A stretch of DNA of 64,000 nt, from IMG/VR virus record IMGVR_UViG_3300017998_000010, positions 1 to 64,000 of that record. One strand, 5' to 3'. Under the pieces are notes generated by a model. The model made no database searches. It was not told the origin of the DNA and saw nothing but the letters and a program-made list of their open reading frames with translations. The first letter of the stretch is position 1. Every line of letters begins with the position of its first letter. A program made the translations under genes and the position numbers. The DNA comes from an uncultured virus (IMG/VR IMGVR_UViG_3300017998_000010) (Duplodnaviria; Heunggongvirae; Uroviricota; Caudoviricetes). Below, piece by piece: positions 17,262-63,321 of the stretch.

Positions 17262-18071
<810 letters not shown>

Positions 18072-18285
18072 GTTTTCTACCGTATATGAAAATACCGAAC
18101 TTATATAAAAGTGTTTCGGTTTATAGGTTATATCATACAATAGGAGTAGAAAGTGGAAGCGTAGATGGAGTAGAAACCCCAGAATTATATTATATTTATA
18201 TAAGATAACTACTAATATCGGAAGGTTTTTATATCACTGTAATATATCCTACATTAGATGATATAACTGGGAAGAGTGTGTGGGA

Positions 18286-24550: not shown

Positions 24551-24568
24551 ATCATAACATTTAAATAC
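24551..24568 (+). promoter_or_regulatory. BRE-TATA promoter (class B, TAACA type) heading the basic-protein operon
   Basis: atcataacatttaaatac. Confidence 0.7.
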
Positions 24569-24638: not shown

Positions 24639-24830
24639 ATGCAAGATCATCCATTAACAGCCACATATAGACGTAAATTCTACAGATATGATTCCACTTT
24701 CAGAAAAAAACAAAACTCAGCACTTAGGGTAATAGAAATTATGGAATCTGGAAAATATCAAGCTATCGTTGCTGAACGCAAGACTGATGATGGTAAGTCT
24801 GTATTTGATGTATATAGGAGGAAAAAGTAA
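24639..24830 (+). CDS. Small basic protein, repeated-domain family member
   Basis: YRRKFYRY...A...G.YQAIV...VFDVYRRKK. Confidence 0.7.
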   Translation: MQDHPLTATYRRKFYRYDSTFRKKQNSALRVIEIMESGKYQAIVAERKTDDGKSVFDVYRRKK

Positions 24831-24832
24831 AA

Positions 24833-24997
24833 ATGCCAAAAGGTATGTTAGCAACACAACCAACAACTTTAAATAAGTTGTTTGTGCCAAAACAATCACC
24901 TGTTTTACAGGTAACTACCATAAAAAACAAACCCATACCAATTCCCAAAATAAAATCAGTAAAAAAGAAGGTTAAAAAAACAAGGAGAAAGAAGTAA
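24833..24997 (+). CDS. 54-aa basic protein with Lys/Arg tail (not in ORF track)
   Basis: MPKGML...KSVKKKVKKTRRKK; abuts both neighbours. Confidence 0.6.
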   Translation: MPKGMLATQPTTLNKLFVPKQSPVLQVTTIKNKPIPIPKIKSVKKKVKKTRRKK

Positions 24998-24999
24998 TA

Positions 25000-25086
25000 A
25001 TGAAAAATAGAGGAATGTCACGGAAGGGTGACAAAAGTAGGGCAAAGAAAGCTAGAAGAAGAAAAAAGCAGAGGATGTCTAAGTAA
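25000..25086 (+). CDS. 28-aa ultra-basic peptide (not in ORF track)
   Basis: MKNRGMSRKGDKSRAKKARRRKKQRMSK; fits exactly between two operon genes. Confidence 0.55.
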   Translation: MKNRGMSRKGDKSRAKKARRRKKQRMSK

Positions 25087-25087
25087 A

Positions 25088-25462
25088 ATGGTATTTATAT
25101 ATCAAACTGGTGGGAAGATTCCCAAAGAAGTAACCCATAACGGGTTAATTTACAGGCATGAATGGAACGCAAAGTCCATGTCAGATGCAAAGAGAATAGG
25201 TAAAGATCGCAAACTTTTCAAAGAGTCTATGATTTACATTAAGAAGATTCCATATGCTAGAGAAACAGTATATGCTATCTACATTCATCACTCAACTACA
25301 GATCGTATCCTCAAGGGTACACGATTTGAGATGGCTGGTTCAGCACCCCTAAAAACGCAAGCTGTCAAGATGGGTAAGGACATTTATGGAAGGGGTAACT
25401 ACAAGCTGATAAAACATCCACACGGATATGGTGTTTGGAGAAGGAAGAGAGGAAAAGACTAA
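25088..25462 (+). CDS. Basic protein with two copies of the repeated domain
   Basis: HNGLIYRH...A...VYAIYIH and LKGTRFEM...A...GYGVWRRKR; start moved to ATG 25088. Confidence 0.7.
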   Translation: MVFIYQTGGKIPKEVTHNGLIYRHEWNAKSMSDAKRIGKDRKLFKESMIYIKKIPYARETVYAIYIHHSTTDRILKGTRFEMAGSAPLKTQAVKMGKDIYGRGNYKLIKHPHGYGVWRRKRGKD

Positions 25463-25464
25463 AA

Positions 25465-25668
25465 ATGGTAACAAAGTATATTCGTAGAAAAGGTATTTCT
25501 ATAGATGCTGATTATAGATACTATCTAGGAAGTGAAGGTTTGTATGGTATTCTGTTTGGACATCGTTTGAAACCAGCACAGGCTCGGAAAGCTAACTATA
25601 TTTGGAAAACACTACTTGCACAAGAAGGTAAAAAGTCATACATTTCCAAAAACAGAAGAAAAAAGTAG
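25465..25668 (+). CDS. Small basic protein
   Basis: MVTKYIRRKG...KNRRKK. Confidence 0.6.
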   Translation: MVTKYIRRKGISIDADYRYYLGSEGLYGILFGHRLKPAQARKANYIWKTLLAQEGKKSYISKNRRKK

Positions 25669-25686
25669 GGTGAGGAAAAGACAAAA

Positions 25687-26199
25687 ATGGTAACAAAAAG
25701 AAGTCCACCACTTAGACACATTGTAAGCGGTTATAAGACAAAGAGTGGGAAAAAGATAAGCCCACACACCAGAGGTAGCTTTGGTATACGTATGGGTAGC
25801 TATAAAAAAATGGAGAAAAACCCACTATACTTAGACTCTAAAAAGACAAAGCGTATTGGTGGAAGTAAACCAATGCCCGGAGATGTAGTTAAGCCAATCA
25901 ATTCTCAGGATATGCTTGTTAGATCAACTTCATATGGCGTTATAGAGGGAGCAATTGGTAAAAGTAAATCAGAGTACATGGTAACATTCAACCCATCTCC
26001 TGCACCTTGGTGGGACAGGGGGTTTGTTCAATCTTCAGGTGGACCCGCCTTCTATATAAAAGCCTCAAGAATGAAACCAGCAGGATGGAAGAATCAGACT
26101 TTCCAATATTTCCCACATGGTTTCATGGGTGCTGGTCTTGCTAAAACAAAGACTGTGAAGGTAAAGGTTTGGAAAGTAAACTTAAGGGAAAAAAAGTAA
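25687..26199 (+). CDS. Basic protein with N-terminal H-x-V-x2-Y-K-x3-G-x6-RGS motif
   Basis: SPPLRHIVSGYKTKSGKKISPHTRGS; motif shared with the 36849 ORF. Confidence 0.65.
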   Translation: MVTKRSPPLRHIVSGYKTKSGKKISPHTRGSFGIRMGSYKKMEKNPLYLDSKKTKRIGGSKPMPGDVVKPINSQDMLVRSTSYGVIEGAIGKSKSEYMVTFNPSPAPWWDRGFVQSSGGPAFYIKASRMKPAGWKNQTFQYFPHGFMGAGLAKTKTVKVKVWKVNLREKK

Positions 26200-26200
26200 A

Positions 26201-26380
26201 ATGAAACTAGAGTCTAAATTTCCATATAAGGATTTTAATGGAAAGCCTTATAAGTTCCATGAAGCATATCCTACAAGGAAACTTGCAGAGAAAAGCGTAA
26301 AACATTTGCATGATTATGGAGATTTAGCACGTATTGTGGTTGAAGATCATAAATACGTAGTTTATTGGAGAGAAAAGTAA
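26201..26380 (+). CDS. 59-aa repeated-domain family member (not in ORF track)
   Basis: KDFNGKPYKF...TRKLAEKSVKHL...G.LARIV...YVVYWREK. Confidence 0.75.
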   Translation: MKLESKFPYKDFNGKPYKFHEAYPTRKLAEKSVKHLHDYGDLARIVVEDHKYVVYWREK

Positions 26381-26381
26381 A

Positions 26382-26501
26382 ATGGCAGAGATATTCAAAG
26401 CATTTGGAGATTCTGCTAAAAAAGGGTTTAGGATGGCATTTCCTAAGAAGAAAAAAACCAGAAAACGAAAGAGTAAGAAAAAAGTGGTAAAAAGTAAATG
26501 A
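26382..26501 (+). CDS. 39-aa Lys-rich peptide (not in ORF track)
   Basis: MAEIFKAFGDSAKKGFRMAFPKKKKTRKRKSKKKVVKSK; ATGA overlap with 26498. Confidence 0.6.
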   Translation: MAEIFKAFGDSAKKGFRMAFPKKKKTRKRKSKKKVVKSK

Positions 26502-26770
26502 CACACACAATTATTGCACGCGGTATGAAACTCGAAATTCCAGAATATATTATCTACAGAGGTAAACGTTATGAGGTTATGTCATCTCATAGCACATACA
26601 GACCACATGCTCTAGAATGGGCAGAGTCTGATAGAAAACGTGGGCACAAAACCATAGTAAAAACCTTCCCAACAAAGGAGAAGGGAATCAAGGTTTATGT
26701 ATTGTACAGGCACAGACCAACCAAGGTATATAACCAGAAAACTGGAAAAGCAGAATGGGAAAAGAGGTGA
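26498..26770 (+). CDS. Repeated-domain family member
   Basis: YRGKRYEV...HALEWAESDRKRGHKTIVK...VYVLYRHR. Confidence 0.7.
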   Translation: MTHTIIARGMKLEIPEYIIYRGKRYEVMSSHSTYRPHALEWAESDRKRGHKTIVKTFPTKEKGIKVYVLYRHRPTKVYNQKTGKAEWEKR

Positions 26771-26774
26771 AAAA

Positions 26775-26972
26775 ATGTCATATAAATTAGCGTATGTTTG
26801 GGAAACCAAAAAAGAAGCCGATGAACATGCAAAGAGTCTAAGAAAAACCAAGCATGGTGTTATGAAACATAAGACCTATGTTGGTATAAAGGTAAAGCGT
26901 ACCAAGAAAGGGTATGGTGTTTACTACAAGGAAACCAAAAACTACAATAAGTGGCTGAGGACGGGAAAATAA
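26775..26972 (+). CDS. Repeated-domain family member
   Basis: MSYKL...TKKEADEHAKSLR...VKRTKKGYGVYYK; GAGGTGA SD before ATG 26775. Confidence 0.7.
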   Translation: MSYKLAYVWETKKEADEHAKSLRKTKHGVMKHKTYVGIKVKRTKKGYGVYYKETKNYNKWLRTGK

Positions 26973-27160
26973 ATGATAGAAAAAATAAGAAAAATAGGTA
27001 AAAAGAATATTTTTTTTAATGGTAAAATGATAAAACGAACAGTTTATCAAGACCCTTATAATGGTAATATATGGATTGAATCTAAAGATGGTGGAATACA
27101 TTATGTTAAATGGGTTGGGGATTGTTATGAACCAACAGGACATGGTAGGGGTAAGAGGTA

Positions 27161-27400
27161 ATGTCCGAAACCAAATTAAATAAAAAGCTAGAAAAGGCAC
27201 AGCAATCTTCTGGTAAGAAGGGTGGTCGGGGAACGCACGGTTCAATTACCAAGGCGGGGAAAGTCAGAGATCAAACACCGAAAATAGCCAAGTCCAACCT
27301 CAAGAAACACTCTGGTCCGTTGAAGAAAAACAGGGAAAAGTATTTCAGGTTCACACACAAGCCGAAAGATACAAATACTAGAACAGAATATAAAATGTGA
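27161..27400 (+). CDS. rps30e: Ribosomal protein eS30 (S30e) homologue with basic N-terminal extension
   Basis: THGSITKAGKVRDQTPKI...P.KKNREKY matches the S30e signature HGSLxKAGKVRxQTPK...PR..NR..Y. Confidence 0.9.
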   Translation: MSETKLNKKLEKAQQSSGKKGGRGTHGSITKAGKVRDQTPKIAKSNLKKHSGPLKKNREKYFRFTHKPKDTNTRTEYKM

Positions 27401-28012
27401 TTGAAGATGCCTGAGTATTCTTTTTATAAGAATCACAAACTTGTAAAGGTAACATATGAAAATCTAGGCACTGCCCTCACATTAAAAAAGTTCAAAGACA
27501 TACCCAAGCATACACGTGTTGAAGCAAGGTATAATATCATAAAAGGTAGAAAACCATTCATCACAATACAGGTTGGTTATGGTACTGGTTGGTCAAGGGT
27601 CGATGGTCGTTGGCTTAACCTGATTGACAAAAATATGGATGGTTGGGAATTTCTCAGCCGAAAAACAAAAGGCTTATAAGCAACACAGATAGCTGTGTAT
27701 TTTGAGAGATATTGGTGGATCGTAAAATAAAATTTAAACCAAGTCTGCATGATGTTCATGCCTGTGAGTCATTAATGGATGCTCTTGGTGAAGTCGATGT
27801 GAATGTTGGTCAATTCTGGTATCAACCAGTCATTGAGATGCTTTCATATTTTAAACTTCCAGACAAACGCTGTTCTGAGTGTCACAAAAAAATGCCATTT
27901 ATGGATTATTATATCAAACAGGGCATGTGTGACGAGTGTGCAAGTAAATTCAGTTCCGATGAGAACTAGAAAAGTTTATAAGTAACCTGACATATACTTT
28001 ATTGGATAATGT

Positions 28013-28183
28013 ATGGGCAGAACTGGTCGAAAGTATGTTAAGGGAAAGGGAAGCAAACCTATCCAGTGTAAATATTGCATAGATGTCTTACAGGGAGAAA
28101 CCAGATATGGAAGACATATAGTAGCAAAGCATCCAGAGCATATTGAAGATTATATACAAGGAAGGGCACACTATGGTAAGTAA
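28013..28183 (+). CDS. C2H2 Zn-finger protein (not in ORF track)
   Basis: CKYC...YGRHIVAKHPEHIEDY; promoter actagaaaagtttataag at 27965. Confidence 0.75.
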   Translation: MGRTGRKYVKGKGSKPIQCKYCIDVLQGETRYGRHIVAKHPEHIEDYIQGRAHYGK

Positions 28184-28481
28184 AAAGGTTATGGGTTATA
28201 GTCGTTGTGGAATACCATGCGGTGAATGTTATGACAACTATGACAAGAAGTTAAAGCATGGTTGTGAGAGATACCCGCAAAAGATTACCAATCCAGATGG
28301 TGTGGATGATGAATATAGAATCAAGCAACGAGAAAAGTACAGACCAAAGAAACAACTATCACCAAAAAAGGTCTGCCCAAAGTGTGGGGCAAACATGGTG
28401 TATAAATCTGTCAAAGGATACCGATACACAAACAACTATTTCAAGTGCCCCAAGTGTCGTTGGTTGGAAAGAGTAAAGTAA
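28173..28481 (+). CDS. Cys-rich Zn-ribbon protein
   Basis: CGIPCGEC; CPKCG...CPKC. Confidence 0.6.
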   Translation: MVSKKVMGYSRCGIPCGECYDNYDKKLKHGCERYPQKITNPDGVDDEYRIKQREKYRPKKQLSPKKVCPKCGANMVYKSVKGYRYTNNYFKCPKCRWLERVK

Positions 28482-28500
28482 GTCAGTGGTGTGTTTTAAA

Positions 28501-28647
28501 ATGATATGGACAAAGGATAAAGAAGCCGATGTTTTGAGGCTACATGATGAAGGTTTCTCTGCGGCTGAGATTGCCAAGAAGCTGGACATACAAATTTATG
28601 AGGTGGATTTAAAGCTAGACGATTTTCATAAACTACATTCAAAATAA
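28501..28647 (+). CDS. 48-aa HTH protein (GcrA N-terminal-like; not in ORF track)
   Basis: MIWTKDKEADVLRLHDEGFSAAEIAKKL. Confidence 0.65.
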   Translation: MIWTKDKEADVLRLHDEGFSAAEIAKKLDIQIYEVDLKLDDFHKLHSK

Positions 28648-29351: not shown

Positions 29352-30320
29352 TTAAAAGTTGTGGCTGAAGTGTTGCCAATTAACTAAATCTTTAAGATCA
29401 ATAGGTCTGAGTTCCACCGACATTTTGGGTACTTGTAATACAATGGCGTATTTGGTCATAAGATCAGGTAGTTTTTCTGGATTATCACAACCCCCAACCT
29501 CAATTATCAGTATTTCATTACCTCTTGTAGCATAGATGTCTGGTGAGTATCTGTGTCCGTTTATTATAACAAATCTCTCACCTGTGGTAGACCAGCTTTG
29601 TACTTTCCAACCAAGCCTTTCAAGTTGGCTACTAATGAGGGCTATGGTGACTGTGTGTGGTGTATTTCCACCTTTGTTGTGGTCGGTTCGTAATTGTTGG
29701 GATTTACTCATTTTTATTATTGACTCTGGTGTGTGATGTTTACCGAACATGGGGGAGGTATTTCCTTTCATTGGAGAGGGTCTGCCTTTATTTTTTTCAC
29801 TTATTTTTTTTACAGTATTTGGTAATCTATGTTTACCATATTGGGGATGGTTCTCACCAGATGTAATGTCACTTAAATATTTTATAGTCTCTGGTGTGTG
29901 TTTCTTGCCATAAAATGGATTTTTCTCACCAGAAAATCTACCTTTCATATCCTTACTGTGTTGTATACACCACTCTGGTGTGCGTTTTTTACCCCACATA
30001 GGGTTATTCTTACCACTATGTTTGCCCCTTCCTCCTTCACTTTGTTTTTTTCTTGTAGCTTCTGATGGGTGTTTACCATAGTTAGGATTTAACGTCCCTT
30101 TTTTATCAAACATATGGTTTTTTTCACCTTTTTGTGCGTCACCTATTTTTTTCTTATGCTCTGGTGTTTGCGACTTACCATACACAGGGCTTAATATCCC
30201 AGACCTACCATACATTGGGTTTTTCTCACCAGATGCAACACCTCTACGTTTACGTGTTTCACTCATTTTTAATTTCTGCTCATCAGACATCTTCTCTCCT
30301 TTCTTCATAATTTCAATCAC
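29352..30320 (-). CDS. NUMOD3-repeat protein with C-terminal PD-(D/E)XK-like nuclease domain (homing-endonuclease-like)
   Basis: Repeated GEKNPMYGKxHT/SxE units; YSPDIYA...IIEVG. Confidence 0.8.
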   Translation of the reverse strand: MIEIMKKGEKMSDEQKLKMSETRKRRGVASGEKNPMYGRSGILSPVYGKSQTPEHKKKIGDAQKGEKNHMFDKKGTLNPNYGKHPSEATRKKQSEGGRGKHSGKNNPMWGKKRTPEWCIQHSKDMKGRFSGEKNPFYGKKHTPETIKYLSDITSGENHPQYGKHRLPNTVKKISEKNKGRPSPMKGNTSPMFGKHHTPESIIKMSKSQQLRTDHNKGGNTPHTVTIALISSQLERLGWKVQSWSTTGERFVIINGHRYSPDIYATRGNEILIIEVGGCDNPEKLPDLMTKYAIVLQVPKMSVELRPIDLKDLVNWQHFSHNF

Positions 30321-31326: not shown

Positions 31327-32421
31327 CTATTTTTCTTTTGGTTTGACTAAATAATTTAACATCTGCACCGTGTCCATCGTATCGGTATCTACATCCAGTT
31401 CTCTACACGCCTTTTTAACAAAATTGTCTGGAATCCCACTTCCCAGAAATTGGCGTATTATGGCAGACGCAGAGTTTATGTCTATGCGGTTTCTCTTGGT
31501 CTTTCTGAGCATAGTAGTATGTTCTTTCAATGTGGCAACTATATCAGAAAGCTGTGTCTTTTTCATTTGGGCTTCCCTTCTCTTCTCATTGGCGATCTCA
31601 GCCATCTCTGTCAGGAAGAATTTCTTTTTCCTCTCATATAAAGCTCTTATTGTTTGACATAATGGTGTATTTAGTTCTTCCCATCTGTTTCTAAGTTTCC
31701 ATTGTGGCTGTGCTACACCAGAGTATGGGCATTTTAAACACGAAGAGTGTTCACAGTATTCCGCACCCGGAAGTGTCATTTTCTCATCCTTGCTGATTGT
31801 TCGGGGATAAGGCTTCGTAGAAAAAGGTCCGGTTTGATATGAATACACTCTAGCTCTACCTCTTTTCATTAGATGTATTTTATGTGTTATGACCCACGAT
31901 CTTGCTATAACATCTAGAGTTGCCTCTGACAAACAGACTATGAAGATTATGAATCCCTTTGAACGAATAGCCTCAAGTTGCTTCATCAAGTCCTTCTGAA
32001 TGTCTGCATACCAGTCCCGGCTAGAGATCGCAAATTGACTTTCATCGACCACTATTACCCTGCCAATACCCAAAGGACTATCTGGACCAATCAGTTCCAT
32101 GAATTCATCTGGACCAAATGGAACTTGAACGTCTACATCGAACTTAGGGTCTAAAATTTCTGCAAGTCTCAGAGTGAAATAGGTTTTCCCTTTTCCACCA
32201 CCGCCTGTTACGACAACAATACAAGCCTCAATATTATCCCTTTTTTCCTGTAGCTCATCGAGCAAGAAAGTGCCATAACCCGAACCAAACTCAGCCCTGA
32301 CCCCATGCCAATTTGTCCAACGATTTGCACCCTTGTACCCCTTTGGTGGATCAACGAATTCATCACCACCAACTTTTCTTATTGTGGTTCTTTTAAAAAT
32401 TCTTTTAGATTTTGTACTCAT
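31327..32421 (-). CDS. P-loop ATPase, probably FtsK/HerA-like genome packaging/extrusion type
   Basis: Walker A VVTGGGGKGKT, Walker B VIVVDESQ, RSKG arginine-finger position; Cys cluster CEHSSCLKC. Confidence 0.75.
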   Translation of the reverse strand: MSTKSKRIFKRTTIRKVGGDEFVDPPKGYKGANRWTNWHGVRAEFGSGYGTFLLDELQEKRDNIEACIVVVTGGGGKGKTYFTLRLAEILDPKFDVDVQVPFGPDEFMELIGPDSPLGIGRVIVVDESQFAISSRDWYADIQKDLMKQLEAIRSKGFIIFIVCLSEATLDVIARSWVITHKIHLMKRGRARVYSYQTGPFSTKPYPRTISKDEKMTLPGAEYCEHSSCLKCPYSGVAQPQWKLRNRWEELNTPLCQTIRALYERKKKFFLTEMAEIANEKRREAQMKKTQLSDIVATLKEHTTMLRKTKRNRIDINSASAIIRQFLGSGIPDNFVKKACRELDVDTDTMDTVQMLNYLVKPKEK

Positions 32422-51334: not shown

Positions 51335-51967
51335 GTGAAAGGACATAACTATGGACTCTGCCGTAAGTGTGGCAAGGTACACATACATCCGTTTAATGGA
51401 AAGCCCAGAAGCAGGGAATGGGGGGATAATATATCAAAAACTAAGAAAGGTATGTGTGTTTCAGAAGAACAAAAAGAAAAGACATCTAAAAGTTTAAAAA
51501 AATTATATGAAAATGGTGAACGAACCGTTTGGAATATTGGTAAAACTAAGTATAATAATGAAAGTGTAAAAAGAATTAGTGATGCTAATATAGGGCACAT
51601 TCCTTGGAATAAAGGAAAAACAAATGTCTATTCACAAAAAACATTAGATTCAATTAGTAATAAACTTCATATATATTTTGAAAATGATGCTAAATATCTT
51701 AATATTTCAAGAGAGTCTGATGAACATAAAACTATAAAAAATAAAATAGCAAACGAAATACGTTCTCTTGGTATGGTTGTAGAAACAGAGAGATTTATAA
51801 CAATTAATGGACATCGTTATGCTGTAGATGTTTATGCAAAAAAGCAAAATGGTGATGTTATGATTTTTGAGGTAGGAAATTGTAAAAAGAAAAAGATGAA
51901 TGATTTACAAACACATTATTCACTTATATTTCATGTGCCAAAAACCAGTGGTGGTCGTTTAGTATGA
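51335..51967 (+). CDS. NUMOD3-like plus PD-(D/E)XK-like nuclease (divergent paralogue)
   Basis: PWNKGKT; ERFITINGHRYAVDVYA...FEVG. Confidence 0.7.
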   Translation: MKGHNYGLCRKCGKVHIHPFNGKPRSREWGDNISKTKKGMCVSEEQKEKTSKSLKKLYENGERTVWNIGKTKYNNESVKRISDANIGHIPWNKGKTNVYSQKTLDSISNKLHIYFENDAKYLNISRESDEHKTIKNKIANEIRSLGMVVETERFITINGHRYAVDVYAKKQNGDVMIFEVGNCKKKKMNDLQTHYSLIFHVPKTSGGRLV

Positions 51968-52905
51968 TCATTACAAGAACACCTTTACGTATAACACTTG
52001 GGGGTGGTGGAACAGACATACCAGAATACTATCAAGAAAACGGTGGTTTCTGGATTTCAGCTACAATCGACAAATACATATATATAGCTATAAACACTAG
52101 GTTTGAGAAAGAACTTAGAATAGTTTATTCAAATCTAGAAATTACTAAAGGCAATCGAGATATTCAACATCCAATAATCAGGGAGATATTCAAGAAGTTT
52201 AACATATGGCAGAATCAGGAATTTATCACATTTGCTGATCTACCCGGAAGTTCAGGATTAGGTTCTTCTGGTGCTTTCACAGTTGGTGCAATAAAGGCAT
52301 TTAATCCTACAATAAGTAAAACCGACTTGGCTGAACAGGCATATTCCATTGAACGGAACAATCTTTCAAGACCCATCGGAAAGCAGGATCAATATTCGGC
52401 TTCTTTTGGTGGAACTAGAGTTTATATGATTGGTAGGGATGGTAAAGTTGATGATATAATTCTCACAGAACCAGAACTTACAAACCACTTAATGTTAATT
52501 TATACCTCAAATATACGTGATTCGGGAAGGATACTCAATACTGTAAAGGAATCCACACGGCAACTTAAAGATATTGAAGAGATTGGTAGAGAATCCGCTA
52601 AGGCTATTATGAATCTGGATTATCAAAAACTTGGTGAACTTATGGATGATCACTGGAAAATTAAAAAGACAATTTCACCTGAGATGTCTACACCAGAGAT
52701 AGATAATCTCTATGATGAATTGAGACAAAACGGTGCTATTGGTGGAAAATTAGTCGGTGCAGGTAGTGGTGGATTCCTCATGGTAGTTATTCCAGATAAT
52801 AAAACAAGAACAAAAATTCTTCAGTCTGGTTGTTTCGAGAGTAGGGCATATGTTCCATTCAAAATGACATATACAGGCTCAGAGGTGATAGCAGGTGACA
52901 GCTAG
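51964..52905 (+). CDS. hddA: GHMP kinase, D-glycero-alpha-D-manno-heptose-7-phosphate kinase-like
   Basis: TPLRITLGGGGTD, PGSSGLGSSG, GKQDQY, GGKLVGAGSGG. Confidence 0.85.
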   Translation: MIITRTPLRITLGGGGTDIPEYYQENGGFWISATIDKYIYIAINTRFEKELRIVYSNLEITKGNRDIQHPIIREIFKKFNIWQNQEFITFADLPGSSGLGSSGAFTVGAIKAFNPTISKTDLAEQAYSIERNNLSRPIGKQDQYSASFGGTRVYMIGRDGKVDDIILTEPELTNHLMLIYTSNIRDSGRILNTVKESTRQLKDIEEIGRESAKAIMNLDYQKLGELMDDHWKIKKTISPEMSTPEIDNLYDELRQNGAIGGKLVGAGSGGFLMVVIPDNKTRTKILQSGCFESRAYVPFKMTYTGSEVIAGDS

Positions 52906-53464
52906 ACAGGTAATTGATGAAGTTGTAAAATATTTACCAGAAACGAATATAATTCTTATAAAAGATATTGCAAATGCAATTTTCATCAGGGCACACCGTT
53001 TTAATGCTACGGTGTGGTTAGTTGGTAATGGTGGTTCGTCAGCAACGATGAGTCACTTAGCATCAGACCTTACAAACCTTGGAATACAAGCAATCTGCAT
53101 AACAGATAATGTCCCCTCCCTCACAGCCAAGATAAATGATGATGGTTGGGATGATGTTTACTCTTCCGTTGTCAAGGGTAGGATCAAGAATGGTGACATT
53201 CTCATTATGGCTAGTGTGAATGGTTCAAGTGGCAAGAGTCCGAATGATGAGTTGTGGAGTTCTAATTTGTTTAATTTAGCAAAGTATTTTAAATCTATGC
53301 ACGGTTATAGATATGCTTTTATAGGCAATAATGGTGGTAATTTAAAAGAGTTATGTGATATTTCACTCTGTGTAGATACAAGAAATCCTTATATAGTTGA
53401 GGGAATACATAGTGTCTTAGCACATGCATTAGTATCGGAAATAAATGTATTGAAGGTAACATGA
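52895..53464 (+). CDS. gmhA: Phosphoheptose (sedoheptulose-7-P) isomerase, SIS domain
   Basis: GNGGSSA..SH...D, LTAKIND, EGIH...H. Confidence 0.85.
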   Translation: MTARQVIDEVVKYLPETNIILIKDIANAIFIRAHRFNATVWLVGNGGSSATMSHLASDLTNLGIQAICITDNVPSLTAKINDDGWDDVYSSVVKGRIKNGDILIMASVNGSSGKSPNDELWSSNLFNLAKYFKSMHGYRYAFIGNNGGNLKELCDISLCVDTRNPYIVEGIHSVLAHALVSEINVLKVT

Positions 53465-53868
53465 TGTCGATAACAAAAATAACAGAAGATATATTTATAG
53501 GAAACGATAAATATACTTTAGACGATCTTAGAAGTAATAATATTTGTTTCGTTATAAATGTGGGTGGAAGTGATACAGGATTTGAGGATTATAAGTTCCA
53601 TCTAGTGGATGGTCACAATCCTATTAAGCACTATAATCTAGTCTTGAAGAAGATTAGAGAACAAGTTAATAAAAGAAAGAGAATACTAATTCATTGTCGT
53701 GAAGGTAAGTCTCGTTCAGCGTTTGTGGTCGCACTATATCTAGCTAGACACGAAAAAATAACAGTTCTAACTGCTATAGATATGATTACTAAACTGAACA
53801 AAAAGACTGAGATAAATGAAGAAATGTTAAAAACGTATATGGAGGATGTTGGGCTATATTATACTTAG
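53461..53868 (+). CDS. Dual-specificity (CX5R) phosphatase
   Basis: IHCREGKSRS. Confidence 0.9.
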   Translation: MMSITKITEDIFIGNDKYTLDDLRSNNICFVINVGGSDTGFEDYKFHLVDGHNPIKHYNLVLKKIREQVNKRKRILIHCREGKSRSAFVVALYLARHEKITVLTAIDMITKLNKKTEINEEMLKTYMEDVGLYYT

Positions 53869-54533
53869 ATTCGGCAGACTTGAAAGAGATAGATGAGATT
53901 CTTAGCCTTGGTTTATGTGATGGTATTACAACCAACCCAAGTCTAATGGCAAAATCTGGTGTGAAAGACATACAGAAGATGATACATGATATATGTCAAT
54001 ATGATATATATGATGTATCTGTTGAGTTGATTGATCCATTTTTATCTATAGATAAACTTGTTGATGAAGCAACAGAATACTATATGTGTTGTATGGAAAA
54101 GGTAGTAGTAAAAGTACCTATGATTGATACTCGCACATCAGAATTAATAAATGCTTTAAAAAGAAAACATATTCCAGTAAATCTAACATGTCTAATGTCT
54201 GCTTATCAGGCTATCATTGGTCTTGAGTCAGAACCATATTATATCTCCCTTTTCTACAGGAGAATGATTGATTTCAAGAACTTTGATTACGCAAAGGAAC
54301 AGATCAGAATAACAGCCGAATATTTACAGAGATTTGGTAGTGGTGATAGACCACTCCTAATCTGTGGAAGTATCAGAAGTCCAGAGGATGTTCAGGTCTG
54401 TATGGATAGCGGTGCTGATATTGTAACAGTTCCGTACAAAGTCCTAAATGAGATGTACAAACATCCCAAAACAGAGGAAGCTGTAAAAGAATTCACTGAA
54501 AAATGGAAAACAGCTTTAAAACCAGTTGTGTAA
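53856..54533 (+). CDS. tal: Transaldolase (TalC/FSA family), probable ATA start
   Basis: LYLDSAD upstream of the track start; GITTNPSL, VVVKVP, GSIR, GADIVTVP, HPKT. Confidence 0.88.
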   Translation: MLYLDSADLKEIDEILSLGLCDGITTNPSLMAKSGVKDIQKMIHDICQYDIYDVSVELIDPFLSIDKLVDEATEYYMCCMEKVVVKVPMIDTRTSELINALKRKHIPVNLTCLMSAYQAIIGLESEPYYISLFYRRMIDFKNFDYAKEQIRITAEYLQRFGSGDRPLLICGSIRSPEDVQVCMDSGADIVTVPYKVLNEMYKHPKTEEAVKEFTEKWKTALKPVV

Positions 54534-54801
54534 GATAAAATGTCAATCAACATAGACAAAAAACAAATATTTCATATATCTGTCTATGTAGATGTAATTT
54601 CTATTCTTTTTTGTTTCATGGTTTTTTGTCCAATGGGTTATACAACGGCTGTGATACAAACCGAACCTGCTAGGACACTGTGTGCTTTAAGTTATAACCC
54701 AATAATACAAACAATTCTTATTATAACGATTTTATATACAATAATTTTGGTGGTATATGATGATTATTTCTCAAAGAATTCAATTTTGAGAGGTAATTAA
54801 A

Positions 54802-56001
54802 ATGTCTGAATGTTCACTCTGTACTATTCCTCAACGAGAAAAACTTATTTACACAGATGAATTAGTATATGTTGTGGAAACTAAAGATAAGAAAGGGCAT
54901 AAAATTCGTCTGATGTCCAGCATAATTAGACACTCTGATAAACCTACTTTTGAAGAACAGATACGTGTCAAAGCCAAGCTCATAGAATACATGAACAAGT
55001 ATGTCGGTATCAAGCCTTGGTATTTCTGTGATTCTACACACTGCTCAATACCAGAACACTATCATTTTGTTGCCTGTGATGCAGAATCAACCGATCCAGA
55101 GGAAATGGCACTATTAGATAATACACTAAAAGTGAAGTTTCCATTAGGTCATAATATCCTGATTGGTATTCCTGCATATAATGAACAGGATAACATTAAA
55201 GATGTAGTAAAAGAGTCCAAGAAATATGGTGATGTTCTTGTTGTTTCCAATGGATCAACAGATGGAACAGCTTTTCTTGCAAAATCTTATGGTGCTAAGG
55301 TTCTAGAATTTGATTGGTCTGGATATGGCAGAGCTTTACAAGAAATCTTCAAATATGCTAAGGTTAATGATTATGATGTCCTCATTACGCTTGATGGAGA
55401 TGGACAGCATGATCCTAATGAAATTCCAAAGTTTTTAGATAAAATTCAAGATTCAGATATTGTTGTTGGTAATAGGTTTTCAGTAACAAATAATATGCCT
55501 TACCATAGAAGAGTTGTTGTTCAGGGAATTAATATGATCTATGGTATTGGTGATACTCAGTGCGGTTTCAGGGCATATAATAAATTTGCAATTGATAGGC
55601 TACATTTGACAGCAGATGGAATGGAAGCATCCCTTGAGATAATTAATAGGGCAAGAGAGAAGGGTTTAAACATAACAGATGTGCCATGTAATGTCACTTA
55701 TAACAAACCAGAACATCCCACAAAATTTATATATCAGGGTCTGACACTCATTGAGATAATATTCTGGGGTGCTGTATGGAATAGACCCTACACATATATT
55801 GGAATACCAACAGCCATCTTATTCTTAACATCATTATTCTCTGGTCTATACACGACAGGTTTATATCTCGAAACATTCAAACTCAATATATCTATGGCAC
55901 TCATCTGTGGTATAAGTTTTATAGCTTCTCTGATGCTGGGAACCATAACATTTATAATCAGTATGCAACGTAGATTAGTGAAAGAGTTGAATGTCAAATG
56001 A
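54802..56001 (+). CDS. HIT-like N-terminal domain fused to DPM1-like GT2 glycosyltransferase with C-terminal TMs
   Basis: CSLC...RH...SIPEHYHFV; IPAYNE, GSTDGT, LDGDGQH, DTQCGFRAY. Confidence 0.8.
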   Translation: MSECSLCTIPQREKLIYTDELVYVVETKDKKGHKIRLMSSIIRHSDKPTFEEQIRVKAKLIEYMNKYVGIKPWYFCDSTHCSIPEHYHFVACDAESTDPEEMALLDNTLKVKFPLGHNILIGIPAYNEQDNIKDVVKESKKYGDVLVVSNGSTDGTAFLAKSYGAKVLEFDWSGYGRALQEIFKYAKVNDYDVLITLDGDGQHDPNEIPKFLDKIQDSDIVVGNRFSVTNNMPYHRRVVVQGINMIYGIGDTQCGFRAYNKFAIDRLHLTADGMEASLEIINRAREKGLNITDVPCNVTYNKPEHPTKFIYQGLTLIEIIFWGAVWNRPYTYIGIPTAILFLTSLFSGLYTTGLYLETFKLNISMALICGISFIASLMLGTITFIISMQRRLVKELNVK

Positions 56002-56242
56002 GCAAAATTAACGATTTTTATTTTATTTTATTTATAACTGTTTCTACTGCCTTTGCTATATTAACGGTATCTTTTTTGGGTGGATTGTTTGTTGGATCGC
56101 AAGAATTATTTAATACAATGCTTATAACTAATGATGCTGTTGAAATTGTTTGCGGGTTTATTTCAATACCATTCATTTTTATGTATGGTTATATTTTATT
56201 TAAGTTTTGTGAAAAAATTGGTTTTAAGGAATTAAACATCAA

Positions 56243-57196
56243 ATGACCGACTTTACTTTAATTGTTACGGGTGGATCAGGATTTATCGGGTCAAACCTCT
56301 TGGATATGTTGGTTGAGAAATATAAAAAATACTATGATGTTAAAATAATATCTATTGACAAAAGACCACCTGACAAAATGTTCGATGATGTTGAATATAT
56401 TGTGGAAGATTTAGCCGATCCAGAATTCAAATATATAAATGAGAAACCAAGGGCTGTTATTCATTTGGCAGGTTCTCCTTGGTCAAAAGTCAAGGGTGAT
56501 CAGGGCTGGTTAGCAGAGGCAGATAATTGCTTCTATAATAACACGGTTGCAACATATAACGTTCTTTCAAAAATTCGACCAGAGAAAATTATATTTTCCT
56601 CTTCGGCTAATATATATGGTCAAGGCAGGAGAATGAGAGAGATACATCCCATTCAAATCTCAAGTCCGTATGGCTATTCAAAGTGGGTTTGTGAAGAGGA
56701 AATTAGGAAGTCTGGTATAGAGTATGTGATCTATAGATTCGGAACGGTTATTGGAATAAGAGGCAGAACCTTCCCTAATAGGCTTGTTTACTGTGCTGTG
56801 CATGGTATTCCAATAGAACTATTCAACAACGGAAAAGCCTATAGAGATTTAATATCCGTACATGATATTTGTAGGGCATTAATATCTGCCATATACATGC
56901 AGACCTGTGAACCGTTTGAGAATACATATAATGTCTCGATGGGGATGGAGGTAAGTGGTTCGACAATAGCGGAAATTGTTGCAAGGACAGCCACAAAATA
57001 TGGTTATAAACTTGATTATTCCAAGACACCGTTTGCACCAAATGGATATGTGCTAGAATCTACGCTAAATATTGAAAAAATATACAAACGTTTCGGCTGG
57101 AAACCAGAGAAGAATGTCTCAACTGTGTTGGATGAACTTTTCAAGTATTATGTGGAACCAGATGCAAAAATCCCCCCAGCTTGGGAGAGTTTATAA
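56243..57196 (+). CDS. NAD-dependent nucleotide-sugar epimerase/dehydratase (extended SDR)
   Basis: VTGGSGFIG, FSSSA, YGYSK. Confidence 0.9.
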   Translation: MTDFTLIVTGGSGFIGSNLLDMLVEKYKKYYDVKIISIDKRPPDKMFDDVEYIVEDLADPEFKYINEKPRAVIHLAGSPWSKVKGDQGWLAEADNCFYNNTVATYNVLSKIRPEKIIFSSSANIYGQGRRMREIHPIQISSPYGYSKWVCEEEIRKSGIEYVIYRFGTVIGIRGRTFPNRLVYCAVHGIPIELFNNGKAYRDLISVHDICRALISAIYMQTCEPFENTYNVSMGMEVSGSTIAEIVARTATKYGYKLDYSKTPFAPNGYVLESTLNIEKIYKRFGWKPEKNVSTVLDELFKYYVEPDAKIPPAWESL

Positions 57197-57667
57197 ATAT
57201 GGTATTTGAAAATAGAAAAATCGACCCACTTTTTACATGGTTTTCAGCATTAATATTGATTATTGTAATAATCATACTCATGGCTATAGGAAGGTTTACT
57301 AATTGAGTATCGTAGGTGATCCACCAAATCCAGTATCATTATATATGTTTTCTATACTCATATTGGTTGCTGGAATTGTAGATTTTATAAGTCCAGAGAA
57401 ACATTTAGGTACGTTTTTATTAACAATAGGTGGTTTGGGTTTTATCCTTATTTATTTTATATTTCGTAATGATGAGTACAATCTTGAACCACCAACAATC
57501 AAAGAATTTGTCATTGGTTGTGGGCTTTTAACAATTTCTGCAATTACATATTTTGTGCCTTGGTTAAGATTAACATCTCTTGTCCTTATAGGATTTGGTG
57601 CATATACTAGTGGTGTTTGGATTTGGATTTTTTGGGAAATACACTTTGGAAAGGAGAAAGGTAAAAA

Positions 57668-59023
57668 TTGAAAGTTCTTTTATTGAACCCACCGGGAGAA
57701 GCAATAAGAACGGGAAGGCTAGTTCGTAAATCAAAGATTAGTACACAATCATGGTATCCTATCCATCTTGCGTATGCTACTGGAACACTAGAGAAATTTG
57801 GACATGAATGTTATTTATATGATGCTTCTGTGAAAAAAGATTCGTGTTTAGACGTTAAGTTTCTTGTTAATAGTCTGAAACCAGAAGCCATAGCCTATTT
57901 CTGGGCATATGATACGGCAGAATCCGATCTTTCATTCGCTAATGAATTGGGTAAGGATTACCATGTAACTCTCGTTGGTCCTTGGTCTGCTCATATGCCC
58001 GATGCTCTAGATAAATGCCCAAACGTTAATGAAATGACTTTCGGAAATTTTGAATACACGTTACAAGACCTTTATACAGATGAGCCAAAGAGATTAATAC
58101 AAGGTCTAAAATATAGAGAAGGTAAAGATATTCTCTTCAATCCACAGGCTGAACCGTATACACAGGAAGAATTTGATTGGATGCCTTTCGTTACAAAGGT
58201 TTATGCTGAACACTTAGACTTTTTTGATTATCATCAGACAAGTTTCAGGTATCCGTTTATTGATTTATTTTCAGCTTTAAGTTGCCCTCACCGTTGTGCG
58301 TTTTGTAGTTGGACAAATGGTTGTGATCTCTTACATCCAAAGCGTTATGTACAGCGTAGCATCAAGAATGTGATGGAAGAACTTTGGTATGTCAAAAATG
58401 AACTTCCACAGATCAAACAACTTTTCTTTCAAGATTCAACACTTATTGGATCAAGGGCAAGGGAAATCAGTCTTACAATGCTCAGTGAAGGACTCAAATT
58501 GTGTTGGGGTTGCTATTCACGTGCTGATAAGGATTATGATACACTGAGACTGATGAAAGATGCTGGTTGCCGGACTTTGCACGTTGGCTATGAAGTTCCA
58601 ATTCAGAGCTATTTAGATGAGATGAAAAAGGATATTACAGTCAAACAGGAAGCACAATTTATCAAGGATGTCAACAAGCTCAAGCTCTGGACTTCCTCTA
58701 GTTTTATGATCTTCCCTTGGATGTCGAAAGCTGATATAAGATATATGGTCAAATGGATAAAGGATAACGGTGCTACCCGTATTAATGTGGCACAATTGCA
58801 GGAGTATCCAAACACGACTATAGTTGATGTTAGAAAGGCACATCAAGACATGCCGGGAACGTATATGATGAACTTTGAGGAAATGAAGAAATGGGAGCAA
58901 TACTGTTTTAACGAATTCTATATCAAAAACCCAAAGTTCTGGTGGAATGTTGCCACAAACCCAAGAGAGTGGGTTAATGTTTTCAACGATGCCAAAGGTA
59001 TGGTGGGATTCTTATTTGAATGA
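57668..59023 (+). CDS. B12-binding radical SAM enzyme (HpnJ-like)
   Basis: VLLLNPP...WYPIHLAY; SCPHRCAFC; FFQDST; HVGYE. Confidence 0.85.
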   Translation: MKVLLLNPPGEAIRTGRLVRKSKISTQSWYPIHLAYATGTLEKFGHECYLYDASVKKDSCLDVKFLVNSLKPEAIAYFWAYDTAESDLSFANELGKDYHVTLVGPWSAHMPDALDKCPNVNEMTFGNFEYTLQDLYTDEPKRLIQGLKYREGKDILFNPQAEPYTQEEFDWMPFVTKVYAEHLDFFDYHQTSFRYPFIDLFSALSCPHRCAFCSWTNGCDLLHPKRYVQRSIKNVMEELWYVKNELPQIKQLFFQDSTLIGSRAREISLTMLSEGLKLCWGCYSRADKDYDTLRLMKDAGCRTLHVGYEVPIQSYLDEMKKDITVKQEAQFIKDVNKLKLWTSSSFMIFPWMSKADIRYMVKWIKDNGATRINVAQLQEYPNTTIVDVRKAHQDMPGTYMMNFEEMKKWEQYCFNEFYIKNPKFWWNVATNPREWVNVFNDAKGMVGFLFE

Positions 59024-59717
59024 TATAACAACCACAGAAAAACACATACTAAGTGTTCTATATATATTACATAAAAAGTCAATTCCACCAGTATTTATTG
59101 TATCCATTCTGGGGTTTTTGAATAGAAAATATAAAGATCAAAGATTAGTGATATATTTTTATAAGAAGTATTTTAACATAGAAATAGGCAGATATACATA
59201 TGGTGTTATACAGTTACTTAATTCTGAATATCATACACTTAAAAGCATAGGAAATTTCTGTGCAATAGCACGTAATTTGGTTCTTGCTGGATATGATCAT
59301 CCAATCCACAGATTTACTACACACCCAATAACAACCGAACGTAAATATGGTTTTATTGAAAAAGAGTTAGCTGAAGAATATCTCCAAGAAAGTAATCTAA
59401 TTACAATTGGAAATGATGTTTGGATAGGTTCAAATGTGATAATTCTGCCACCTGTAAATATATCCACAGGTGCTGTTATCGGTGCTGGTGCTGTTGTCAC
59501 CAAGGATGTTCCACCATATGCGGTTGTTGTTGGTGTTCCAGCGAAGGTTATTAAATATAGGTTTTCACAAAAGACCATAGATATGTTGCTTAAATCTGAA
59601 TGGTGGAATATGGAAGATTCAAAGATATGTGAAATATGTAGTATCTTATATCATAAAGAAAACAAGATGGATAGTGATTATGAGGGTGCAATACAAAAAT
59701 GTTTTTCAACTCTTTAA
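58947..59717 (+). CDS. Hexapeptide-repeat O-acetyltransferase (CatB/Vat-like; real start probably near 59016)
   Basis: IGRYTY, IGNDVWIG, GAVIGAGAVVTKDVPPYAVVVGVPAK. Confidence 0.88.
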   Translation: MLPQTQESGLMFSTMPKVWWDSYLNDITTTEKHILSVLYILHKKSIPPVFIVSILGFLNRKYKDQRLVIYFYKKYFNIEIGRYTYGVIQLLNSEYHTLKSIGNFCAIARNLVLAGYDHPIHRFTTHPITTERKYGFIEKELAEEYLQESNLITIGNDVWIGSNVIILPPVNISTGAVIGAGAVVTKDVPPYAVVVGVPAKVIKYRFSQKTIDMLLKSEWWNMEDSKICEICSILYHKENKMDSDYEGAIQKCFSTL

Positions 59718-59729
59718 AAACAAGAAAAG

Positions 59730-60446
59730 GTGAATACAATGAATAAAATAAAAACAAAGTATCTATTATCAAATCCACTTGTTCTTGCATCTTATATTGT
59801 CACCAAACCCAGAACATACAGATTAACGTCTAAATTCAAGTGTGTTGTTAGTGATTTTAATTATAGATATATGTTAGGAGATTGTGGACCTGTTTGGTAT
59901 GATTGTTGTGAGTATATATATGCTCTAGTCAGAGAATATAAACCAGAAATAGTTGTTGAAACGGGTATTAATAGCGGCTTTTCCTCTTATTTTATATTAA
60001 GGGCACTTCACGATAATAACATGGGAAAATTATACTCTATTGACCCAGATGAGTTTTGTTTAGGTATAGGTAGATTGGCAGGTGATCGTAACTCAAGTGA
60101 AACAGGTAAGAAAATTGGTTGGTTTGTTCCAGATGAACTAAAGGATAGATGGGAAATAGTGCGTGGTCTTAGCAGTGATGTTTTGGTTCCTCTGTTGGAT
60201 AGACTAGGTTCAATAGATATGTTCTTACATGATAGTGAACATAGTTACGAAGTTATGTCATTTGAATACAATACCGCTTGGAAATATCTGAAATCTGGTG
60301 GTATATTGCTTTCAGATGATGTATTACACACACCAGCATTTAAGGAATTTTCGTCTGGTAAAAACAGTAATATTTATTATTTTAGGCTTGGAGTAGTGAA
60401 GAAAGTCAAAGCACCACTATATTCCATCGTTGATAGTGTAAGGTGA
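59730..60446 (+). CDS. Class I SAM methyltransferase (Methyltransf_24-like)
   Basis: VVETGINSGFSS, FLHDSEHSY, GGILLSDD. Confidence 0.85.
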   Translation: MNTMNKIKTKYLLSNPLVLASYIVTKPRTYRLTSKFKCVVSDFNYRYMLGDCGPVWYDCCEYIYALVREYKPEIVVETGINSGFSSYFILRALHDNNMGKLYSIDPDEFCLGIGRLAGDRNSSETGKKIGWFVPDELKDRWEIVRGLSSDVLVPLLDRLGSIDMFLHDSEHSYEVMSFEYNTAWKYLKSGGILLSDDVLHTPAFKEFSSGKNSNIYYFRLGVVKKVKAPLYSIVDSVR

Positions 60447-61087
60447 TGGTTGGTATGTCTATTGAAGATGTTGCAAGGTTATGGGAAGAGGAATGGATAA
60501 AATCAGCCGATATACATGAACACAGTTCCATTATTGGTAAATTCCTTCGTGTCCAGAGAATGGGAATAATAAGAAAAATGTTAAAATCAATATCTAAAGA
60601 ACTATCAGCAATTGATGTAGGTTGTGGAAGTGGGGAAACATTACTACTCTTGCGAGATATAGGTTTTAAAAACTCAATCGGAATAGACATATCATCACAT
60701 GCAATGAGAAAATCAGAACTACATGGATTAACAGAAAATGTAGATGTTTTCAGAAAAGATGGTTCCAATACAGGCTATCCAGATAGAAAGTTTGATTTTA
60801 TGTTTTCTGAGGGTTTGTGGGAACATTTTAAAGACCCACTACCGTTCATAAAAGAAGGTTGCCGAATCTCAGATAAGTGGTTAATGATAGTTCAACCAAA
60901 CCATTTTTCTTTCTTTGGTGGTCTACTTAATTGGGGTTGGGAACACTTTAGTCAGCAGGGTGTACATGAATATTCATTCCCTATGAGTTATTTCATAGAC
61001 AATGTTACAAGAAATGGGTTTACAATCATTGACAGAAGAGGAACATATTTAAATGAACAAAATGTTTTGTTTTTTAGAAGAGACTAA
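60443..61087 (+). CDS. Class I SAM methyltransferase
   Basis: IDVGCGSG, GIDIS, GLWEHF. Confidence 0.85.
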   Translation: MMVGMSIEDVARLWEEEWIKSADIHEHSSIIGKFLRVQRMGIIRKMLKSISKELSAIDVGCGSGETLLLLRDIGFKNSIGIDISSHAMRKSELHGLTENVDVFRKDGSNTGYPDRKFDFMFSEGLWEHFKDPLPFIKEGCRISDKWLMIVQPNHFSFFGGLLNWGWEHFSQQGVHEYSFPMSYFIDNVTRNGFTIIDRRGTYLNEQNVLFFRRD

Positions 61088-62624: not shown

Positions 62625-62650
62625 TATGGTGAAAATAAGGAGAGAATGAT

Positions 62651-63316: not shown

Positions 63317-63321
63317 AAAAA

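Follow-up and report, generated by a model that had tools for sequence, protein, structure and literature searches.

Ribosomal proteins (r-proteins) encoded by viruses are known almost only as bacterial types carried by phages. The gene considered here, found at positions 27161..27400 (+) of the uncultured virus record IMGVR_UViG_3300017998_000010, encodes a protein of the archaeal/eukaryotic type, the small-subunit protein eS30, with an addition at its decoding-site end. The whole stretch of DNA that was analysed, called the window below, comprises 64,000 nucleotides (positions 1 to 64,000 of this record). Like the r-protein genes of phages (bS21, bL12, bL9 and others) and those of archaeal viruses (L21e, bL19), this gene, referred to below as the long eS30, is a single small r-protein gene located away from any r-protein operon. 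It differs from them by the type of the protein, by its place at the mRNA entry channel and decoding site and by an N-terminal addition found throughout its family. As with those genes, the presumed target is host translation: carrying the long eS30 would probably allow the element to tamper with the ribosomes of its host.

In the accessible text of Mizuno et al. 2019 (PMC6375957), the only viral eS30 is the antisense fau of a murine retrovirus, and the accessible part of Duan et al. 2023 (PMC10541130) gives as r-proteins of archaeal viruses only L21e and the bL19 of a Bathyarchaeia virus. These two sources, as far as their accessible parts go, agree with the initial annotation of the window, made from the DNA sequence alone, which had described known virus-borne r-proteins as mostly bacterial types. 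A 2026 survey of archaeal proviruses (PMC13573593) names, in its accessible part, S6e, L15, L15e and L30. The literature search found no report of an eS30 in an archaeal virus, supplementary tables being places where such genes could be listed.

The survey of virus databases that the initial annotation had proposed gave a positive answer in IMG/VR, where a scan of 2.9 million contigs with the family alignment returned 216 pattern matches and six contigs with an eS30 relative. In GenBank, tblastn against 50,697 phage and archaeal-virus records gave no match to the long eS30. The six contigs are four copies of the element described here, L174 (IMGVR_UViG_3300021591_000018, 77 kb) and G003 (also L006/L175, IMGVR_UViG_3300033149_001352, 136 kb). 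The last two encode an archaeal-type eS30 that starts with MPTHGS; G003 has in addition a near-threshold match to an HK97 capsid, and shares with the window only eS30 (42% identity) and a methyltransferase. Virus-borne eS30 exists in short and long forms.

To our knowledge, eS30 is one of three small-subunit proteins common only to eukaryotes and their closest archaeal relatives (TACK and Asgard). According to the accessible text of Bourgeois et al. 2025 (PMC11698992), the eS30 of S. solfataricus lies in the mRNA entry channel of the 30S subunit, where it touches helix h16, and its Pro2, which becomes the first residue after removal of Met, makes a van der Waals contact with G1448-A1449 of helix h44 by the A site. 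The same accessible text reports a Pro at position 2 in most archaeal eS30 and, for eukaryotic eS30, a His of the N-terminal tail that stabilises the A-site codon-anticodon pair and a tail that touches eEF2 and eIF1A (PMC11698992).

Cellular archaeal eS30 (Pfam PF04758, NCBIfam NF006817; e.g., that of Saccharolobus solfataricus 30S initiation complexes, PDB 9fhl chain e) belongs to the same hidden Markov model (HMM) family as the window protein and has the signature HGS(I/L)TKAGKVRxQTPK...P...NR..Y. However, the window protein is 79 amino acids (aa) long versus roughly 50-68 aa, a basic extension of 23 residues stands in place of the Met-Pro terminus that touches h44, its gene is located on a mobile element and not among cellular genes, and its score is below the equivalog cut-off. 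The eukaryotic FUBI-eS30 (FAU) likewise has extra residues before the conserved His, with a diglycine two to three residues upstream. However, the viral leader has 23 aa, no ubiquitin-like domain is detected in it, and its GG is one residue out of register and missing in many members; the window protein does not correspond to a fusion of the FUBI-eS30 type, in which a ubiquitin-like domain is cleaved after GG. An element-borne family that alters the N-terminus of eS30 would be a natural experiment on the very part of the protein that differs between archaea and eukaryotes.

The long eS30 gene and its family

The open reading frame (ORF) 27161..27400 (+) encodes, stop codon included, a protein of 79 aa (MSETKLNKKLEKAQQSSGKKGGRGTHGSITKAGKVRDQTPKIAKSNLKKHSGPLKKNREKYFRFTHKPKDTNTRTEYKM) with the signature H-G-S-(I/L)-x-K-A-G-K-V-R and the downstream P...N-R..Y. 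The S30e signature that the initial annotation had noticed, HGSITKAGKVRDQTPKI...KNREKY, was found at exactly these positions, and the HMM match on which the annotation had staked its reading is significant: the protein reaches 41.1 bits (E 2e-10) with Ribosomal_S30 (PF04758), whose gathering cut-off is 27, residues 25-66 corresponding to profile positions 2-44 of 58. With the equivalog model NF006817 of NCBIfam (30S ribosomal protein S30e), it reaches 48 bits (E 8e-13) and stays below the cut-off of 75. It is thus a true homologue that does not score as a cellular orthologue. No family for this protein was found in PHROGs.

Three parts can be distinguished in the protein. The N-terminal extension (residues 1-23, MSETKLNKKLEKAQQSSGKKGGR; 27161..27229, +) has a net charge of +5 and is absent from cellular eS30; the basic head of about 23 aa that had been announced is thus real. 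An in-frame stop is located three codons upstream of the start codon, and no ATG, GTG or TTG occurs in frame between codons 1 and 54, so that the extension is translated whenever the core is and cannot be an annotation artefact. The conserved eS30 core (residues 24-66, GTHGSITKAGKVRDQTPKI...KNREKYFRFTH; 27230..27358, +) is delimited by the Pfam match and by the alignment to chain 9fhl_e, and the rest of the protein (residues 67-79; 27359..27397, +) is a variable C-terminal tail. A purine-rich Shine-Dalgarno-like stretch, AGGGGTAAGAGGT (27147..27159, +), immediately precedes the ATG, and this start codon shares bases with the stop codon of the ORF before it (TAATG), both features having been read by eye. 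The product of the gene is best explained as a diverged but functional homologue of the eS30 of archaea and eukaryotes.

A word-indexed search of 5.8 billion proteins led to the identification of 20 relatives of 63-98 aa, nearly all of which are lengthened at the N-terminus by a basic stretch with KKGGRGTHGS or ...KSGHGS at its end. The 21 aligned members, which share 39-91% identity, have 11 invariant residues (H26, G27, K31, A32, G33, K34, V35, R36, T39, P53 and R58), G22, R23 and G24 being nearly invariant. The mean identity of the 20 relatives to the window protein is 48% for the extension (residues 1-23), 72% for the junction (18-25), 85% for the core (24-44), 50% for the middle (45-66) and 23% for the tail (67-79).

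An exhaustive profile search of 1.84 billion representatives returned 982 eS30-like proteins at E <= 0.001, 165 of which were inspected for their N-terminal form. A canonical start was found in 59 and a GxG/SG-type extension in 44; 33 have other extensions (further basic archaeal forms, eukaryotic FUBI/ubiquitin fusions, miscalled starts), six are miscalled starts with an internal Met-Pro and 23 were not matched by the regular expression used. In a weakly resolved tree (91 rows, 56 usable columns), 21 of the 26 extended sequences group together (support 83/94), and the window protein belongs to a core clade of 16 members (97/90). A sub-branch of the family ends its extension in ...(K/V/T)SGHGS, without GG, and a few extended forms (P0019, P0020, L152) keep a cellular-looking ...KRKSGQNW C-terminus. 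The spread of 39-91% identity around an invariant core, the 97/90 clade and a neighbourhood likeness with L090, whose long eS30 is 45% identical to that of the window, suggest that the long eS30 has been kept by selection and is not a recent accidental pickup.

A variant form of extended eS30, 95 aa long, is encoded by L105:590-874 and L144:560-847, with an insertion of about 30 residues after the core (...KPIKGKGKESGKIQGSVTMIMHHKKKH...), beside a gene for a DUF2341 protein.

The extension was then looked for in cellular genomes. Among the matches listed, cellular genome loci, mostly of Bathyarchaeia, Thermoprotei, Nitrososphaerota and Asgard, contributed 66 eS30 ORFs, and a basic GxG-type extension is present in none of them. 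Cellular eS30s start, among these same matches, with MP(T/S)HGS, MPGSHGS, MGTHGS or similar and have roughly 50-68 aa; any additional residues are few, and some ORFs have an internal Met-Pro because the longest-ORF caller had extended them upstream. Furthermore, a DNA pattern for the junction (G-R-G-T-H-G-S-(I/L)-(T/N)-K-A-G-K-V) was found in none of 401 Thermoproteota genomes and none of 400 Asgard-phylum genomes, and the single match of the positive control was the gene of the window itself. This motif, which separates the 44 long forms from the 59 canonical ones and is absent from the 801 sampled genomes, could therefore serve to mark such elements and to restrict their hosts to eS30-bearing archaea.

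Proposed action on the ribosome and alternative roles

Residues 25-67 of the window protein align to residues 3-44 of the S. solfataricus chain 9fhl_e. This puts G24 at the position of Pro2, so that the head of 23 residues begins at the h44/A-site contact; in the usual archaeal form Pro2 directly precedes (T/S)HGS, and here 23 residues precede G24-T25-H26. Since the rRNA-binding core has hardly changed, binding of the protein at the eS30 site of host 30S subunits is most likely, and the junction (G-R-G-T before His), being conserved throughout the family, speaks for a function of the head there.

The following sequence of events can be proposed. A large virus-like element of an eS30-bearing archaeon (TACK or Asgard) would transcribe its long eS30 from a TATA-like promoter, together with the other small basic proteins of the operon. 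In the host 30S subunit, the protein would displace the host eS30 from its site at the mRNA entry channel, and its basic head, which ends in the conserved GGRGT, would project into or beside the decoding centre and the initiation-factor site. Ribosomes of infected cells could then start or decode differently, to the advantage of the element. The probability that the long eS30 replaces the host eS30 and that its head modifies initiation-factor binding or decoding is estimated at about 0.55, its incorporation into ribosomes, the position of the extension and the effect on translation all being predicted from the sequence. If true, this would give archaeal viruses a direct route to manipulate translation.

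A bolder view would make the long eS30s a virus-specific class of ribosome-reprogramming proteins that take the place of host eS30 and whose basic head, with the conserved G-R-G-T at its end, switches initiation or decoding in the h44/A-site/aIF1A region to favour viral messages or stops host translation; the data at hand make this view possible, though doubtful. As a corollary suggested by the analogy with eukaryotic FUBI-eS30, long eS30s may be processed at the diglycine, in which case archaeal viruses would be a place where an N-terminally extended and processed eS30 existed outside eukaryotes.

Several observations weigh against the replacement of host eS30 by a viral protein. The score below the NF006817 cut-off and the divergence of the C-terminal half (50% mean identity in the middle, 23% in the tail) could mean that the fit to the ribosome has been lost. 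The location of the gene among small basic ORFans, with a promoter motif shared by large and possibly structural proteins, would suit a non-ribosomal binding of nucleic acids as well. The eS30 of the viral contigs G003 and L174 has no extension, which is thus not required for viruses to keep the gene, and the junction screen covered, among cellular phyla, Thermoproteota and the Asgard phylum. Lastly, no capsid, terminase or portal was found in the roughly 92 kb read (the window and about 28 kb beyond it) or in G001, the nearest record, a 59,210-bp IMG/VR 'provirus' with the same S30 match. These searches consisted of Pfam and PHROG scans of window ORFs of at least 100 aa and of L176 ORFs of at least 80 aa, of a Pfam scan of L089 ORFs of at least 90 aa and of a PHROG scan of L177 ORFs of at least 80 aa, G001 and G002 being searched with Terminase_6N, Phage_capsid, Terminase_6C, TerL_ATPase and Phage_portal. 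The negative result for capsid and terminase is weak, since in G003, which is 89% complete, the same models miss the hallmark genes and give only a sub-threshold match to Phage_capsid (HK97; 23.4 bits versus 24.2). Moreover, the 59 kb of G001 correspond to a CheckV completeness of 33%, so that about two thirds of the genome remain unseen.

The protein could also be a co-opted basic nucleic-acid binder that never enters the ribosome and serves to condense the genome, to build the virion core or to bind RNA. Its gene indeed lies within a dense array, all on one strand, of about 16 small ORFs (24639..28647, +), most of which encode proteins with 20-30% K+R and no family match; the motif found upstream of the array also heads the blocks of the 1160-aa and 1420-aa proteins, which may be structural; a neighbouring basic protein of 170 aa has weak SH3/KOW-like leads only; and the missed equivalog cut-off and divergent C-terminal half fit such a role. 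However, the invariant residues are those of the ribosomal signature (H26, G27, KAGKVR, T39, P53, R58), and a polycation of no specific kind would have no use for them. Extended eS30s are also found in unrelated surroundings that lack an array of this kind (L152, L144), and for none of the genes supposed to be structural has this been confirmed, all of which makes this role rather unlikely. A cleavage of the leader, for example after the GG of KKGG/RGTHGS, would release a near-normal eS30 that tops up or replaces the host eS30. Such a pro-protein is reminiscent of eukaryotic FUBI-eS30, which is cut at GG/KVHGS and whose cleavage is required for maturation of the 40S subunit. Uncleaved FUBI-eS30 precursors are the best PDB sequence matches of the window protein, the viral SGKKGGRGTHGS aligning with AGRMLGGKVHGS, where the GG pairs are one residue out of register, and the near-invariance of G22, R23 and G24 would suit a cleavage site. 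However, the leader is a stretch of 23 residues and not a ubiquitin-like domain, the whole ...(K/V/T)SGHGS sub-branch is devoid of GG and no protease gene was identified nearby, so that processing of this kind seems quite unlikely.

The carrier element

The initial annotation had placed the gene in a viral-type operon, and the gene content of the window is of the mobile-element type. It is rich in ORFans, a Pfam match of any kind being found for 24 of the 69 window ORFs of at least 100 aa. It encodes two DNA methylases (N6/N4 and Dam, by Pfam), a protein in which a ParB_N-like domain is fused to one of the radical SAM/DUF5131 type (19619-20986, +; phrog_13321, 7.6e-36), a protein with a weak integrase-like Pfam match and four homing-endonuclease-like NUMOD3 paralogs. 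Three of the latter were found with Pfam NUMOD3 and phrog_314 (29352..30320, -; 41531-42385, +; 46987-47703, -) and the fourth by BLASTP (51335-51967, +); their pairwise identity is 29-47%, and they are linked by long inverted repeats in the DNA.

A P-loop ATPase (31327..32421, -), with Walker A (GGGGKGKT) and Walker B (VIVVDES) motifs recognised by eye, has no match in Pfam, in PHROGs or, by phmmer, among PDB sequences. Its nearest clusters in the ESM Atlas (score 0.98, 235 of 256 shared features) are 100% viral and belong to Uroviricota where the phylum is known, which is to be taken as a lead only; the single-sequence AlphaFold model of this protein is unusable (mean predicted local distance difference test 37.7).

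A sugar-modification/glycosylation island of about 22 kb, recognised with Pfam, starts in the window (51964..64000, +) and continues in L089:10001-20687 and L176:10001-11191. Its genes encode a GHMP kinase, a SIS protein, a DSP phosphatase, a transaldolase, family 2 glycosyltransferases, epimerases, a DegT aminotransferase, a UDP-GlcNAc 2-epimerase, a radical SAM protein, hexapeptide transferases, many methyltransferases and an STT3/AglB-like oligosaccharyltransferase. On an 82-kb contig that extends beyond the end of the window, about 10 kb more of the island are followed by genes for a complete archaeal-type S-adenosylmethionine (SAM) synthetase and a zf-AN1 protein and, further along, a second AAA+ ATPase and a clamp loader resembling replication factor C (phrog_168, 2.9e-46). 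A PD-(D/E)XK exonuclease (phrog_69), a dCMP deaminase (phrog_174, 1.4e-39) and more ORFans are also encoded past the island. The presence there of clamp loaders, exonuclease and dCMP deaminase indicates that the glycosylation island is internal to the element.

The identical long eS30 protein is encoded by four IMG/VR contigs (38-82 kb), which are 99.99% identical to the window over 20 kb. The operon was also found on contigs of 24 DNA runs (wetland or peat metagenomes), 23 of which are flagged as possible sources and are therefore not independent support. Offset arithmetic from the contig ranges, which assumes that the upstream part of G001 is collinear, suggests that the element spans at least about 100 kb.

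This carrier is a large virus-like mobile element and probably a large archaeal virus, a view drawn from its gene content, its classing in IMG/VR and the Atlas leads for the ATPase. Together with the PF04758 match, this context supports the initial annotation in seeing an eS30 homologue on a putative archaeal virus. The carrier could instead be a large non-viral mobile or extrachromosomal element, such as an integrative island or a megaplasmid-like element, the gene still being element-borne. The lack of any capsid, terminase, portal or tail family in the 92 kb or in G001, the ParB-like genes, the weak integrase-like match, the length of the glycosylation island and the 'provirus' label of G001 would all fit. 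It is nevertheless unlikely: the four homing-endonuclease-like paralogs, the phage-type clamp loaders, the exonuclease and the dCMP deaminase fit a large virus, the nearest Atlas clusters of the ATPase are entirely viral, and the negative result for the hallmarks is weak, the 59 kb of G001 being put at 33% of a genome by CheckV and the same Pfam models missing them in G003.

A more radical alternative is that the window is host chromosome and the gene simply the resident rps30e of an archaeal lineage that has been little sampled and whose eS30 is naturally long. It draws some plausibility from the scope of the comparisons, the junction having been screened in two phyla and the genome and metagenome results being those among the matches listed, and from the cellular-looking C-terminus of P0019, P0020 and L152. 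However, neither tRNA, rRNA nor Rfam match nor housekeeping gene was found in the 64-kb window, whose GC content is even (0.31-0.39). In the same way, no other r-protein, the absence of which had been pointed out earlier, was found among the 69 ORFs of at least 100 aa or, at lenient thresholds, among the small ORFs of the array; the Ribosomal_S26e and Ribosomal_S25 families were likewise not found in G001 or G003. Furthermore, element-type genes are located on both sides of the glycosylation island, the genes that flank that of L152, whose tail looks cellular, are for HNH endonucleases and nucleotide modification, and the SAM synthetase of the element is at most 53% identical to sequences of the 502 sampled genomes. 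With this element-type gene content and four copies in IMG/VR, the resident-gene explanation, which the initial annotation had itself named as the outcome that would undo it, is largely refuted and now appears highly improbable.

Concerning the host, the constraint that eS30 had been expected to provide holds in part: hosts are narrowed to eS30-bearing archaea (TACK or Asgard), with Bathyarchaeia and Asgard as the candidate lineages. The comparisons of eS30 sequences give two answers. The highest core identities, among the matches listed, are to Bathyarchaeia (54-62%), whereas the tree, built on 56 columns, weakly favours (87/91) a placement of the long family with Promethearchaeota. The best identity of the SAM synthetase, 53% in 251 Thermoproteota genomes and 50% in 251 Asgard-phylum genomes, is not decisive.

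Neighbouring genes and other features

Besides eS30, none of the small ORFs of the array has a convincing family match at lenient thresholds, with hints of zinc ribbons and of one helix-turn-helix; the weak SH3/KOW-like leads of the 170-aa basic neighbour came from its Atlas model. The ORF directly downstream of eS30 (27401..27679, +) encodes a basic protein of 92 aa with a look-alike near the long eS30 of L090. There, two ORFs separate the eS30 gene from a downstream ORF that shares the N-terminal '(F/Y)YKNHKL' motif of the window ORF, and a 'MRKSP.(E/K)H' ORF of L090 resembles the window ORF at 36849 and, more loosely, the one at 25687 (comparisons made by eye).

Among the at least 59 eS30 ORFs of the metagenome scan, five are extended and have DNA context (L090, L100, L152, L105 and L144). 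ORFans and HNH endonuclease genes lie near them, along with a gene resembling dATP/dGTP diphosphohydrolases and genes for a DUF6899 and a DUF2341 protein, and no housekeeping gene was found in any of the five. All of these other contexts of extended eS30, among the matches listed, have the look of mobile elements.

A promoter-like motif, AACATTTAAATA (24556..24567, +), which resembles a TATA box with a TFIIB recognition element (BRE), is located at the head of the array. The shared intergenic motif AACATTTAWATA has 18 matches with at most one mismatch in the window versus 4.9 expected, a number reached in 0 of 100 shuffles. Its exact copies (7746, 24556, 36791, 42581 and 48152) are all on the + strand, upstream of gene blocks; copies with one mismatch occur, for example, at 10285 (+) and 33607 (-). 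The motif probably serves as the TATA/BRE promoter of a single temporal class of genes, which would include the eS30 array and the genes of the 1160-aa and 1420-aa proteins.

These two large proteins, for which no family match was found, are candidates for virion or surface proteins. That of 1420 aa (42633-46895, +) has a signal peptide, repeated 'DGTYLY' beta-propeller-like units and a C-terminus with multiple transmembrane segments, and that of 1160 aa (37424-40906, +) has a Gly/Ala-rich hydrophobic middle and a Ser-rich repetitive C-terminus. Two proteins with collagen triple-helix repeats (16303-17160 and 17262-18140, both -) match phage collagen-like tail fibre families in PHROGs and have hydrophobic N- and C-terminal segments. 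An ORF of 286 aa without family match (10823-11683, +) shows primase-polymerase-like motifs (...CTVDVDTLD... and ...SGGFHIILD...) read by eye.

Several proteins of the array end alike, in ...GYGVYYKE, ...GYGVWRRK, ...YVVYWREK, ...KVYVLYRHR or ...VFDVYRRKK, which are beta-hairpin-like. This similarity suggests a paralogous family of small nucleic-acid binders.

The region around 10200-10450 of the window is an assembly branch point, at which three IMG/VR contigs begin. Contigs of the runs X1 and X12 go leftward into different sequences and a contig of X24 bridges the point as in the window, the depth being lower on its left side in three of four runs. Related strains thus seem to share the eS30 side of the element and to differ upstream of this point.

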